From positions 420,867 to 484,866 of the forward strand of contig MU055016.1 in the NCBI GenBank assembly GCA_013239625.1: DNA of 64,000 nt, read 5' to 3'. Below, piece by piece: positions 246-6,772 of this stretch; position 1 is the stretch's first letter; every line of letters starts with the position of its first letter. A program made the position numbers and the translations under genes. The notes below the pieces were generated by a model. The model was not told the DNA's origin and did not search any database. It saw only the letters and a list, made by a program, of their open reading frames with translations. The DNA is from Lama guanicoe. Taxonomy: Eukaryota.

Positions 246-2124
246 CAGCAGCAGCAGCTGAGGCGGCGGCACCACCTACCCAGCCTGAGGGCAGCCCCTT
301 GGCCCAGATCTCGGACCCCCTGGACCTGAGCTCTGAATCCGAGGCTGCTCCCAGGACCTGCTCCGGGTCTTCGGCACAGTCCCCCGCCTCCCCCTCCGGG
401 AGCAGCCTGTCCTGTCCCTCTCTCCAGGAGTTTCAGAAGGCATCCGCCATCCTGGTCCAGCTTTCTGAGAGCTCCGTCTCCCTGTCGGACTGGGAAGCAG
501 GGGACACTCGGGACGCAGACTTCGGCTAGTCTGGGGGTTTCTCCGCTCCAGACTCCTGGGGGTTCCACCAGGGCGGAGGGCAGTGACCTGGGAGGGACTG
601 GAGGGCAGCAGGGCCCATTCTGAGCGCGGCTCCTGCACTGTGGCCAGTAGCGCAGTGCCAGTAGGCCTCCTGAGGGCGGGCTGGCTGCTGCCTTTCCTCC
701 ATGTCCCCTCTCCAAGGTCAGGGTCACAGCTGTCAGAGGCATCCAGAGAAGTCTGGGACCTGGAGAGCCTGCGGGAACCTGGCCCTGGTGTGGAGCCAGT
801 TCCGGGGCACTCCTCCCTTGCAGGGGGCTCGTCCAGCCCGGAACCCAGTCTCCACCCAGCTCCCTCCTTGGGCCCTGGGGAGGGGCAGGAAGATTCTGGA
901 ACCAATAGGAGCCTGACCAGTGGATCAAACACAGGAAAAACCAAACGGAAATTCCCAGAGGCTGCCTGCACTGTACTCCCACCCCAAACCTCTTCCTCTG
1001 GTGACTTATGCTCATCTCTTTCCTTTCCCTCGGGGACCTCAGCCTCCGAAGGGGGGGATTTTGGCAGAGGAAGAGAGACTGGGCCTCCACAGGTCTTGGC
1101 TGGCCATCCAGAGGAGCCCTGGGGTGCTGACCCGAGTCCATCTGCTGACAGGAAACCCCTAGAGGCCTGACCCCAGGAGCCCACAGGCTCCTCCTGGGGA
1201 CCCCAGCGGGCTGGCAGCCCCAAGAGCCGAGAGCCAGGCACCTGGGTTTGTGGGGAGCAGAGCCCCCACTGCCCTGGAGGAAGTCTGCCCTCCCCTGGCT
1301 GGTGGGGTCTTGCCAGAGGTCCTGTCCCCCATTGATGAGATGCTGTCCTATGGTAGTGCCGCCCTCCCGTCCTCCACCCACAGGGACACCCACCTCCCTC
1401 CTCCGCCTCCCAACGTCCTAGCGGAGTGTGAGGCCGACCCTGCCCGTCCCCACTCAGAAGGCTTCCCTTCCCTGCCTGAAGACACCTGGTCTCCTGGGGG
1501 CGCACTGGGTGCCCCAGGGGAAGACGCCTCCATCCTCACCGGAGAGTTGCCTTCCTTGTCTGAGGAGGGACTGCCTGCGGCACTGTCCCCAGGGCCCCAG
1601 GAGTCAGGGCTCTGCCTGGGGGTGGCCGGACAGGGCAGAAACTGTGGGGATGAACTGGGAGAATCAAGTTCTATTGGGGGTCACCAGGCCATGGGTGGCC
1701 AGTGGGCTGAACCAGTTGGCTGGCTAGGGTCCCCTTTGTGTGGGGGAGCAGGTGATACCCCAGTGGAGCTCCCAAGGCTCACAGTGCAGCCCCCAACCCT
1801 GTCCAGCGTGGGCTGTGTGACTGGGGAGAGTCTGCCAAGCTACTGGCAGCTGGCGACACAGTGCTGTGTGGCTCCAGGCTGGGGCACCCAGCCCCTACTT
1901 TGGGCTCAGGCCCCTGCACTGACACCCCTGGTATGGAGAGAGCCGAGGTGTTAGATTTGGTCTCTACCCAGCTCACCAGAAGGATCCTGTGCGACACACT
2001 AGCTGTGCTCTCAGAACCAGCCCCTCCAGGCAGCCTGGGGACAGAGGAGCCGGGGGGTGCCAGCCGTGTCGCCCAGTCTCACTCAGCGGCCACTGGGCAG
2101 TCGTGGGGAAGATGGGACTTCTGA
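246..2124 (+). pseudogene. CCDC187: Probable terminal coding exon of CCDC187 (coiled-coil domain-containing 187), disrupted by one in-frame stop and three frameshifts
   Basis: Pyrimidine tract and CAG acceptor ending at 245. Four consecutive ORF pieces in alternating frames carry motifs I recognise as CCDC187 C-terminal: SCPSLQEFQKASAILVQLSESSVSLSDWE; SPRSGSQLSEASREVWD; EVLSPIDEMLSYGSA; VLDLVSTQLTRRILCDTLAVLS. Position directly upstream of QSOX2 on the same strand matches known synteny. Confidence 0.68.
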
Positions 2125-3834
2125 GAAGACGAAGGAAGGACTGCGGTGACACACAGACACCTATGATACCGTCATGTGATTGTGCAAGAGCGTGTGTGCG
2201 CGTGTGAGCATGCAAGAGGCTTCAGGAAGCCTGGACCTGCCCCATGCTGGGCTGCCGCACGGAGGAGTCCCCTGGGAGCGGGCACCTGACGCAGGGCCAA
2301 GAACTGGACGTCAACTGCGGATTGCCTCTGTCTGCATTTCTCTGGACGTTGGGTCCACTGCTTCTCTCAGGCTCCTGAGGAGCCCCCGGAGGCCCTGACC
2401 CAAAGAGATTAAGGTGAGAGGATGTGCGGGGCGCGTGCAGAGCTGGCTGGTCAGGAGGAGGAGCGGAGGCCACGGACTTGAGGGAGTCAGTCCCGAGCAG
2501 CCAGGACCGGGAGCAGCTCCTGGGGTGAACTCGGAGACCACGTGCCAGGAAGGGGTGCCGTGGGCCTCAGCACAGGCCAAGAGGAAAAGAGAGAGCGGCT
2601 TGCTGGGGGTGGTGAGGCCAGGAGCTGAGGCTGGGCGTCACATCTGCACTGTCGCCGCTCAGCTTTGACTAATTAGGATATCATCTGCCCCCACTTCTTA
2701 CTTCTAAAGGCAGGGTCCTGGGTGCCTTCACGTGTCCAGCCGACTGCTTGTGGCTGGGAGATAGGCGTGTGTGTCCCCCGTGGGCCCAGTTGTGCAGATT
2801 AGGGGAGGTGGCAGCTCAGGGGCAGAAGGTCACTTTGCCTCAGCCAGCCATCCCTCCAGCCTGTCCTCTGGGGGTGGGTGGGCCACAGCTTCCCTGTATG
2901 TGTTCAGGTCCCCTCCCAGAAGAAATGAGAGCCCACTTCCTGGTGGGCCATCCACTAGTGAAGGAGCCCTTCACGACACAGCAAGGGCCACAGCCCCTGC
3001 ACCATGCACTTCTGCAGGGGCGACCAGAGGGCCACACAGGCCTCCAGGTGTCCCATTACGTGAGCGCCTGCTTCTCTCAGAACCGAAGCCAGGCGGGGGT
3101 CCAGGAAGTCAGTGCCGATTCAAGCGTAAAGAGGACTTCCCGTGAGACGTGAGGATGAAGTGAGGCTGCCAGGTGCAGGCCCTTGGGGATGGGGACTCAG
3201 CAGGCTGGGCAGGGTGGCCCTGGGGCCAGCTCAGTGTAAACTGGGACAGCTGACCTTCGAGGGCCTGAAGGACAGGGCACTGCAACAGTGACCTCTACCC
3301 ACAGCAGCCACCCTGCAAGCCAAAATGGGCTCTGACTGGGTCCCTGCAGCCCACCCTTCCCCCAGAGCAGCCCTGCAGCCACAGCCACCACCCTGGGAGA
3401 GCACAGACTCGGATGGCGGCAGGCCCCCGTGTCCAGTCTGCCTGCTCCCAAGCTCTGTCTGAGCCCCGTCTTCCCCAGGATGGTCAGAAAGCTGGGCGGC
3501 GTGTGTGTGTTGGTTTCAATACGAGAGCACGTCTGAGCTCGTGCTCCAGGGCACCCACTAGACACTGTTGCGGCGTCTTCTCAATGTACTTGCTTTGCAC
3601 AGCAGACGTCTCCAGATTGGGGTAGGGTATGTGTATGTGTCACTGCGATACTTTCAATATTTTTGTCCTGCACTTGGAGAAGTAGCTTTTAAATGAGGGC
3701 AACACTCAGTTCTTTTATAAAGAGAAGCAACTTTCAAATCTGCTTCTAATGTGGCTAGGATTTCTTGAGACGGGGCTCACTTATACTGTGCTTGGATCTC
3801 TCAGAAATTCCTTTCCAAATCCCACAGTCCTACT

Positions 3835-4005
3835 TACCTATCTATCGTCTGTTTAGTCCTCTCTCATCCATCTGTAGCATCTGTTTATCATTTAGATCAT
3901 CTATCAATCATCTGTCTACATCAACTGTCTATAATCCATCCACCCATCCATCTATCCATCCACCCACCCATCCATCCATCCATCCATCCATCCACCCATC
4001 CATCT
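3835..4005. repeat. (TCTA)n/(CCAT)n degenerate tetranucleotide simple repeat
   Basis: Runs of tatc/catc/ccat/ccac units, e.g. ccatccatccatccatccatcc at about 3968-3992. Confidence 0.9.
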
Positions 4006-6772
4006 CCAATTCCCTCTCAAATTGGAAAATACCTGCTTGACATGTTGTCCAGAATTGAATGAACAGACTGTTGGCCTTAGAAGGTCGGTGACCTGGTGCT
4101 GATCCCTCCGGGACTCAGCTTCTTCAGCTTTAAGAGAGGAACTCTTCATTTAACTACATTTATGGACCCTTAGGGACACCCAGATTTTCAAACAATTGTC
4201 ATTTAGAGTGGGAGGCATCTCTAGAGTTGTTCTGGCAAAGCCCCATGGTGCTACCTGTGCCCCATACCCTTTGGCTCTGGTAAGGGACCCCTCAGACCCC
4301 TCAGAACACTGCAGAGCCCCACATGCAGGCAGGAGCCCCCTCTGCCAACCTTCACCAGACTCCAGCCTCTGGGGCAGTCGCTCAGGTCCACGTGGACCTG
4401 CTCACCAGCCTGGCCTCCATCACACCCCAACTAATTGTGAACAGGGTCACGGTTCAGGGAAGCACCAGCTGAGACAATTCAAATTGATTTTACACCTGAT
4501 ATTTCCGAACCCAGCTCAGACTGCAAAGAGGTGTGACTCTGTGGGGGAAGACGTGTTCCTTCCCCATGTACACAATTTCAAGACAAATTTTGAGCTACAG
4601 TTTTCTTATTGATTTCCTCCTGGATTTCTGAACAAATTAGTCTGCAATTTTTTATTTTTTTCCTACTTATTGCTGCCCCCTTGGGATTTATGAGGCCGTG
4701 GGAGAGGAATTATGTGTTTTACACACACGCGTTTGGCATGGTAATAAATCTCCCACGTCGAAACCCTGCAGATTTGCCGCAGATCCTATGGTGTCCAGGC
4801 TGGTGCTTGCTGGGGGTGGATGCCAGTGGCTCTGCGTAACGTGCAGCTGCACCTGAGGCCAGGACCAGGGCCTCCCCGGGTGAACTTCCCCGGTGCCCAG
4901 CATGCCACGGTGTCCCTGGAATTGTTTCTTGGCCTGTGGCCCCTCGCCCCTGAAGGGAGGCTGGTCAGGAGAACTAATGGAAAACCTGGCCTCACCTCTT
5001 GTGACAGTTGGATCTGAGGGAGCCTGGGGCTATGAGATGGCCCGAGGAGGCAGAGTGTGTCCCCGGAGGTGCTGGACACGTTTCATCTCAGCCAGCATCA
5101 CGTGCGTGGAGCTGAGGGCTTTGGCATTCAGATATATTGACCTGGGGCAAGACTTCAATTTCAAGATTACTCCCTCCAAGGTCTCCCCGCGCTTGCCTTG
5201 GCTCCAATCCCTGTAACCTCTTGGGCCAATAAATCTTGATACCAGCCTCCAGAGAAGTCATTATCTTTCATAGAAAATGATTATTTCTTGGTTAAACCCC
5301 ACGTCGAGTTTTCCTGTGATCTGTCTCCTTCGGGTTCCCTGCTTAGCTGTTCCCTCCGGCATAAAATGCCCACAAACCCACCTCCAGCGTGTTAAATCCC
5401 AAACCATCAGACGAGCTTTATGAGATCTTTTGGTGCCTTACCCTGCGCGGCTGTAACAGTCACTCTACAAAATAGAAATGAAGGCCGCGGGAGCGGTGGG
5501 GGCAGGGTGTGGGGGGTGGCGGCCGCAGCCACCCCAGAACCACAGCAGCATCCTTTCAGATGGTACCCTCTTGTGCCATGCCCGAGGCGTCTGGCCTCTG
5601 TGAGGCAGGTGGTGAGTAAACGCGCTGGCCTTCCAGGTGGAGCTGGGGCCCCGCTGGGTCAGGGTCGCCTGCAGCAGGGACAAGGCTGTCCAGTGAGGGC
5701 CCAAACAAAACCGGCTCAGGGAGTCCGGTTCCACGCTGGCTCCCCAGGCAGCATCCAGGCCCCAGCAGGTCTGCAAGTTCCACATCTGTTCCCCAGTCCC
5801 TTGGCCTATCTGGTCAACCTGTGCCAGCCCTCAAACGCCAAACTGCTTCTCTGCATTTGTCCCTTAACCCATGTCTCCTTTGCGCTAAGCAAAGGCTCCT
5901 CTCTAATGCCCTGTGAGCGCAGCTGGGAGCAGGAGTGGGGTTTGCAAATCTGGACTGCAGGCTGGGGAGAAGGACAGAATCTCACACACACACGCACACC
6001 CCACATCCCTGGCCCTGCCTCGGGGGCTCCTTGGGCCCCACCCCTGCCTGTCACTCACCTGTAGGGGCCTTTCCCTCGGCCATGTCCATCCAGGTTGTAA
6101 AGATGCTAGTAGCCCACATCCCAAGTCCCGCTCTACCCCTTACTGGGAGTGCAGCCTGGACGCCCGTCCCTCCGTATCTATAGTCACTGCCCTCCTCACA
6201 GTGACACTGTGAGGACACAGAGGATTGTCCCCGCCAGGCTCCGACCTCAGCACGTGGCAAGCACTCAGGAATAATCCTCCTTGTAAGTTTTCCATGGAAC
6301 GGCTGGTGTCCTGAACCAGCTGAGCCTGAACATCAAATGCTGGCTGAATGGGTGTGACATGGAAGGCAGGGCCGGTTCTGGGGCCAGGCTGCAGTGGGAG
6401 TTCATCTGCCCCATGGGAGGGAGTCTCAGAGAAGGGACAGCTGGCCCTGCCCTCCAGGGCTCACGTCCATCCAGCCGAATACCAGCTGCCATGACTGGGA
6501 CGGCAGGAGACTCCGAGCTGGGAGGGGGGTTCTGCTTCTGTCCGGGACTCAGGCGTCAGAACAGGCCCTCCTCGGTGTTGAGGGCACCTGGGTTTGCCGT
6601 TCCTCTGTCACAAAGGTGCCATGTTCCCTTGACCATGGTACTAGGCCCTTGGCCCTTGGCCCGCTGAGCCTCAGTTTCCCCTCGATAAAACAGGAACACC
6701 AAGACTTCAATTCATCAGCGCTAAGGTGCACATCTTCCTGACGTTTTAATCCCTTTGAAATCAGCGTCCATC

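Follow-up and report, generated by a model that had tools for sequence, protein, structure and literature searches.

Probable C-terminal truncation of CCDC187 across camelids, with later decay of the former coding tail in South American camelids

CCDC187 and its last exon in the guanaco

The window analysed here, a 64,000-base stretch of the genome of Lama guanicoe, begins close to the last exon of CCDC187, a gene which we take to be the neighbour of QSOX2 and LHX3. A sequence-only reading had assigned the stretch from 246 to 2124 to CCDC187, and this identity holds: in a protein search the piece 1172–1834 is 93% identical to CCDC187 of Camelus bactrianus (other mammalian matches 54–70%), the best protein matches across mammals carry the name CCDC187, and the last-exon stretch has a single match in this genome. 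When 100 kb upstream of the window are taken in, the full exon chain is found in order, 24 exons over 41 kb, and all camel CCDC187 exons likewise map in order. By junction fitting, 23 exons precede the last one, all 23 introns are GT-AG and all 46 splice dinucleotides are canonical; the intron before the last exon terminates in ...TCTCTGCAG at 245. The rebuilt coding sequence starts at an ATG at contig coordinate G000:C4400:380185 and remains open for 4,725 bases (1,574 codons) until it terminates at the TAG at 527–529. The upstream exons, to which the sequence-only reading had pointed as a place to look, thus carry no other stop and no frameshift, and the predicted protein shares 99% identity with alpaca RefSeq models and 94–95% with camel models. 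An exon extension at ~405100–405380 (G000:C4400, upstream of the window), used by the longest alpaca CCDC187 isoforms only, has small frame-shifting indels relative to alpaca, and the core exon behind it is intact.

Four breaks had been reported in the last exon, each described as disabling, and all four are present in the sequence (Table 1), one of them in a different form. The nonsense TAG directly after DADFG stands in the window translation; as a tryptophan occupies this site in most orthologues, a TGG>TAG change is the probable origin. The frame change placed near 575–583 was found at 582–585, where SGGFSAPDSWGFHQGGG in frame 2 is followed by TWEGLEG in frame 1, collinear with zebu, whale and bat proteins. 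At ~1166 a surplus C had been proposed, and removing it does restore the frame, yet camels carry 11 more bases there; we therefore rejected the one-base repair in favour of an 11-base deletion relative to all six mapped camel sequences, which read EASPEPDPRS. The missing base suspected near 1836 was confirmed at 1837–1839 against the same six sequences. An alignment to 12 orthologues, with an X set at each break, stays collinear across all four sites.

Because the three indels lie behind the stop, they are not independent hits on the gene: the TAG is the sole disabling change, and the indels fall in what is likely 3′ UTR now. The first polyadenylation-like hexamers after the stop are TATAAA at 3716 and AATAAA at 4743, which would give a 3′ UTR of 3–4 kb, and a TCTA/TCCA microsatellite-like run lies behind the gene at 3840–4000.

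Table 1. Features of the last CCDC187 exon of Lama guanicoe, in window coordinates.
Feature	Position	Strand	Evidence
Still-coding part of last exon (exon 24 of rebuilt model)	246..529	+	ends ...DTRDADFG*; acceptor at 245; 94/94 residues match alpaca RefSeq X1
Motif A, SLQEFQKASA..QLSESS, kept in the predicted truncated protein	407..505	+	HMM match in 77/79 non-camelid mammal models; also turtle, bird, frog
Segment skipped by 13/14 Bactrian RefSeq models (DADFG/TSASEGG)	525..1033	+	here starts GCTAGT and ends GG instead of AG
Lesion 1: TAG, effective stop codon, Trp in most orthologues	527..529	+	follows DADFG in frame 2; common to alpaca and dromedary models
Former coding tail, ~535 codons, likely 3′ UTR now; ancestral stop 2122–2124	530..2124	+	aligns in order with 12 orthologues across three frame changes
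Lesion 2: a net loss of one base, shifting frame 2 to frame 1	582..585	+	collinear orthologue alignment
Lesion 3: 11-base deletion relative to camels, creates TGA 1168–1170 in frame 1	1164..1170	+	6/6 camel sequences; same in run X3
Motif C remnant, EILSPVDEVLSYGSADLP, no longer translated	1307..1375	+	HMM match in 77/77 non-camelid mammal models with motif A
Lesion 4: one base fewer than in camels	1837..1839	+	6/6 camel sequences (camel LPTLLAAG); same in run X3
Motif D remnant, last helix DLVSTQLTRRILCDTLAVL	1942..2016	+	homologous to internal helix behind CAP-Gly of turtle and bird CCDC187

Could the breaks be errors of assembly, or variants private to a single animal? The assembly is fragmented (55,231 contigs), and 14 public DNA runs (four organism labels, six studies) contain 0.93–0.97 of sampled words, a measure that does not resolve single sites and falls short of completeness even in the best runs. 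Lesions 3 and 4 have no counterpart in camels and are present in one public run, X3, the only one of four runs to yield contigs here; its contig (3,213 bases) spans 760–2140 unbroken with one substitution and no gaps. X3, the sole run confirming these two lesions, may itself be the source of the assembly. The X3 contig differs from the window by its one substitution, however, yet has no gap at 1166 or 1838; an 11-base deletion is atypical of base-calling errors; the 4,725-base upstream coding sequence of CCDC187 itself, our control for sequence quality, contains no frame error; and the stop recurs in independent annotations of two other species. We consider error or private variation extremely improbable. 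The earlier argument that the breaks are not assembly artefacts accordingly stands for three of the four sites, the stop through the alpaca and dromedary annotations and lesions 3 and 4 through the X3 contig.

The stop among camelids and the tail in other mammals

Among the models listed, 11 of 13 from alpaca and 11 of 14 from dromedary end exactly at ...DADFG, and the remainder stop in earlier exons, are fragmentary, or leave the site out; no camelid CCDC187 model listed has a sense residue there. These counts cover the models listed, with 15 of the 26 members of cluster 2 among them; all 12 Camelus ferus models of the cluster end before the last exon, and the spread of the stop is judged from protein models in two alpaca and two dromedary annotations. 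Alpaca RefSeq entries (XP_072816509-521, XP_031533579/581) and dromedary entries (XP_031306677-683, KAB12799xx) share the end ...EAGDTRDADFG. The truncated protein is thus already the RefSeq listing for both species and the finding is partly visible there, although neither set of entries flags a truncation or describes the decayed tail. From these models the stop appears to be fixed in the lineage rather than private, and since alpaca and dromedary share it, it likely predates the camel/llama split, put at ~16.3 My ago in one comparative study (PMC12127551). The label ‘lineage-specific’ given by the sequence-only reading fits the two indels missing from camels (lesions 3 and 4) and has to be widened for the stop, which independent camelid annotations have in common with this genome.

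Our literature search found no paper describing a camelid CCDC187 truncation. The gene is absent from the main text and six supplementary files of PMC12127551, where a shared stop would have been filtered out because that study sought losses specific to Old World camels, and from one supplementary file of PMC7498332, a source that may have further files or picture tables. An exact look-up of ten window ORFs in a sequence collection gave no matches, a result in which GTG or TTG starts may miss stored M starts, and a search with short window pieces gave two matches, both non-camelid; neither counts for or against the claim. Scans of metagenomes for camel or other mammalian DNA came back empty.

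Three of three Logan ORFs from Camelus retain an open frame of 517 codons after the stop. Two other camel entries read differently: XP_032335034 of Camelus ferus, listed as ‘rho GTPase-activating protein 33, partial’ but apparently a CCDC187 tail under the wrong name, calls for a shift of one base near 629, and dromedary XP_064346966 for one near 800–814. The Logan ORFs have neither shift; these may be segregating indels or assembly errors.

Most orthologues do not end at 529 but run on past it within the same exon; here and in all other comparisons the gene models are predictions. Four short motifs, A to D, characterise the exon. Two of the 79 non-camelid mammal models end before motif A. Motif C, found by HMM also in turtle, ibis and frog orthologues, is conserved from frog to mammals. 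Motif D is present in 63 of the 77 models with motif A and missing in 14, from 12 species (primates including chimpanzee and bonobo, lagomorphs and one bat), some of which may be annotation ends; with that proviso, loss of the tail appears to be tolerated elsewhere. Camelids show the deepest cut, with 7 residues after motif A against 287–778 in other models that reach the last exon, and lose motifs B, C and D. What they lack is for the most part of low complexity, with these three short motifs set in it, and the predicted protein retains its coiled-coil core; with an intact tail as query, the ESM Atlas returned only scores under 0.9.

A shorter cut is seen in chimpanzee and bonobo, whose CCDC187 models stop at ...AGTQ where orangutan, macaque and Trachypithecus run on with E; unlike camelids, Pan keeps motifs B and C. 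This is likely an independent stop in Pan, and perhaps in human too. A colobus model ends at the same residue, homologous to ~window 1600, an end that may be projected from the human annotation. In models of orangutan (P0081), dog and arctic fox (P0079/P0072), Myotis brandtii (P0026) and gray whale (P0025), 50–150 residues are skipped in the same exon; internal splicing or deletions may recur in the last CCDC187 exon.

A truncated gene, a dying gene or a rescued one

Premature stops in a last exon escape exon-junction-dependent nonsense-mediated decay and can turn an old coding tail into 3′ UTR. We favour, with good confidence, an explanation of this kind, in which the gene is not lost. A TAG would have arisen in the last CCDC187 exon and become fixed in the common ancestor of camelids; as no exon junction follows the stop, the mRNA would escape decay; ~1.6 kb of old coding tail would have become 3′ UTR, where indels fix freely; and the 11-base and 1-base deletions would have arisen afterwards, on the South American camelid branch, as UTR decay. 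The upstream gene, intact in sequence, likely still makes a truncated protein of ~1,570–1,750 residues, without the last ~535. Six RNA runs contain ~0.2 of sampled words; two of them gave no contigs for this stretch, which can be a filter effect, and we did not use the share as transcript evidence.

The sequence-only reading had spoken of loss of the gene or of its C-terminus. The four lesions in one exon, and the loss of a motif kept elsewhere from frog to mammals, could indeed be taken as the first signs of a whole gene turning into a pseudogene in this lineage. Yet the stop, which lies at ~75% of the ancestral CCDC187 length and in the last exon, is likely at least 16 My old by the split date given in PMC12127551, while the 4,725 bases of upstream coding sequence and their 46 splice dinucleotides show no damage. 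The hallmark of a whole-gene pseudogene, lesions over several exons or in mid-frame, was not seen in the 4,725-base upstream coding sequence, and alpaca RefSeq lists 11 coding isoforms. Divergence is also lower upstream than in the tail: the amino-acid difference to camel is 73/1,566 (4.7%) upstream and 39/499 (7.8%) in the tail (Fisher p = 0.013, with 1,485 and 499 outgroup-aligned columns). At the tail's rate ~6.6 nonsense changes would be expected upstream over two branches and at the observed upstream rate ~3.9, and none was seen (P ~0.001 and, at the same ratio, ~0.02), an expectation that assumes a mutation spectrum and a neutral tail. We regard pseudogenisation as very unlikely: of the original claim, loss of the C-terminus stands, and loss of the gene does not, with 1,574 upstream codons and all splice dinucleotides preserved.

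Relaxed selection, also part of the original claim, holds for the tail and by its indels only. All three post-stop indels fall in the 1.6-kb tail and none in 4.7 kb upstream (P = 0.016 by length; 0.064 with only the two read-checked indels). Substitutions as a sign of relaxation were rejected, since the raw contrast between upstream part and tail was lost in a leave-one-out control and the tail is faster in intact lineages too. At conserved columns the ratio of tail to upstream change is 1.50–1.64 in camels and 0.74–1.70 in seven lineages with an intact tail; because the camel ratio falls within the range of the intact lineages, substitutions alone do not show relaxation, and the amino-acid test does not separate camelids from them.

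Some observations sit less easily with a simple truncation. Motif C is kept in all 77 other mammal models with motif A, so that its absence here stands out and may indicate a weakened function. An mRNA whose 3′ UTR has grown by 1.6 kb may also be less stable in germ cells (PMC4858225). In addition, the post-stop frame of 517 codons is open in Camelus, and Bactrian models, which are predictions, splice past the stop.

This last point leads to an alternative that we think unlikely, though less so than pseudogenisation, in which a new intron bypasses the stop. In Old World camels it would be in use and would preserve motifs C and D; the South American camelids would have lost the acceptor, after which the tail decayed. 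For this genome it agrees with the truncation that we prefer, and it differs on the camels and on the order of events. In its strongest form, about which we are equally doubtful, the TGG>TAG change would have made its own escape: the new A, which is probably the base changed by the nonsense mutation, would be position +4 of a putative donor, opening an intron of ~510 bases in camels whose AG llamas and alpacas have lost. Thirteen of 14 Bactrian RefSeq isoforms (XP_0742186xx, 94–95% identical upstream) join DADFG to TSASEGG, a skip of 509 bases in window coordinates that keeps motifs C and D; they are without lesions 3 and 4, and in none of the Bactrian models is the stop site translated as an amino acid. 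One dromedary model starts a 100-base skip from the same donor. A long run of pyrimidines lies on the acceptor side, extra 1-base shifts implied by camel models (near 629 and 800–814; maybe assembly errors) lie within 527–1033 and none within 1034–2121, and an orangutan isoform also skips inside this exon. Yet the acceptor joined to this donor differs between the two camel annotations, and another 11 dromedary models just end at the TAG, a pattern expected of a gene predictor dodging a stop. The donor at 524/525 is a GC with a weak exon end (TTCG/GCTAGT), and a splice test at 525–1033 in this genome found that GC donor and no AG acceptor, the bases at 1032–1033 being GG. After 1034 the camel tail has 12 derived residues against 10 here (5 against 4 at conserved columns); having as many derived residues as the dead tail of this genome, it gives no hint of being maintained by selection. 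To our knowledge, introns born from a nonsense mutation have rarely been caught in mammals, and our literature search found no mammalian case.

It is extremely unlikely, as improbable as assembly error, that this genome restores the tail itself by splicing past the lesions. An in-frame AG at 1041–1042 does lie behind the same pyrimidine tract, but a junction there still meets the TGA at 1168–1170, ahead of motifs C and D. Neither of the nearby donors offers a single junction that would bring back both, the AGs that would recover one of the two follow poor pyrimidine tracts (4–12 of 18), and no alpaca model among those listed splices in this way.

CCDC187 as a probable CEP350 paralogue and the meaning of its truncation

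The literature search found no functional study of CCDC187, and the gene is in no title among the matches listed. In one paper it counts among the genes whose expression differs in azoospermia, where it is filed under microtubule cytoskeleton organisation (PMC8875138), and in another it is a differentially expressed pig testis gene with a high-impact SNP (PMC7249385). Its relatives offer a further clue. Pfam CAP-Gly and DUF4378 were found in none of the 13 mammalian CCDC187 proteins scanned (sets of 7/7 and 6/6), and no family at all in the six of six; CAP-Gly is present in four of four non-mammalian orthologues (turtle, bird, frog and shark), two of which have a weak DUF4378 end. The best PDB match of the CAP-Gly domain of turtle CCDC187, one of the proteins with such an end, is CEP350 (E 1e-25; next 3e-16), and shark orthologues are named CEP350-like. 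Mammalian CCDC187 is without the CAP-Gly domain and the DUF4378/M2 end, unlike CEP350/CAP350, a centrosomal scaffold whose C-terminal M2 motif recruits FOP according to PMC6300067. We take CCDC187 to be a testis-expressed CEP350 paralogue and likely a coiled-coil scaffold at the centrosome or at sperm microtubules.

We considered whether the last helix, motif D, is the FOP-binding M2 of CEP350 and rejected this: it maps instead to an internal helix, ~360 residues before the turtle C-terminus. The camelid loss is therefore not a loss of the FOP-binding end, which had already gone in mammals. The picture drawn from these comparisons is of a CEP350 paralogue shortened stepwise from its end, with camelids as the deepest cut.

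As far as sequence and gene models can tell, we regard the truncation as a real feature, one that affects the C-terminus throughout the camelids and was followed by decay in the South American ones. It is a warning for genome scans: a cluster of lesions in one terminal exon can go back to a single event with subsequent decay and need not signal the loss of a gene. Should the camel intron prove true, a nonsense mutation would have created an intron whose origin can be dated, and the same change would have led sister lineages different ways, to a new intron in one and to loss of the C-terminus in the other. CCDC187 also shows how a CEP350 paralogue has been worn down step by step from its end, and camelids are a natural deletion experiment: fertile animals likely living without a motif kept from frog to mammals, whose truncation would narrow the essential part of CCDC187 to its first ~1,600 residues.
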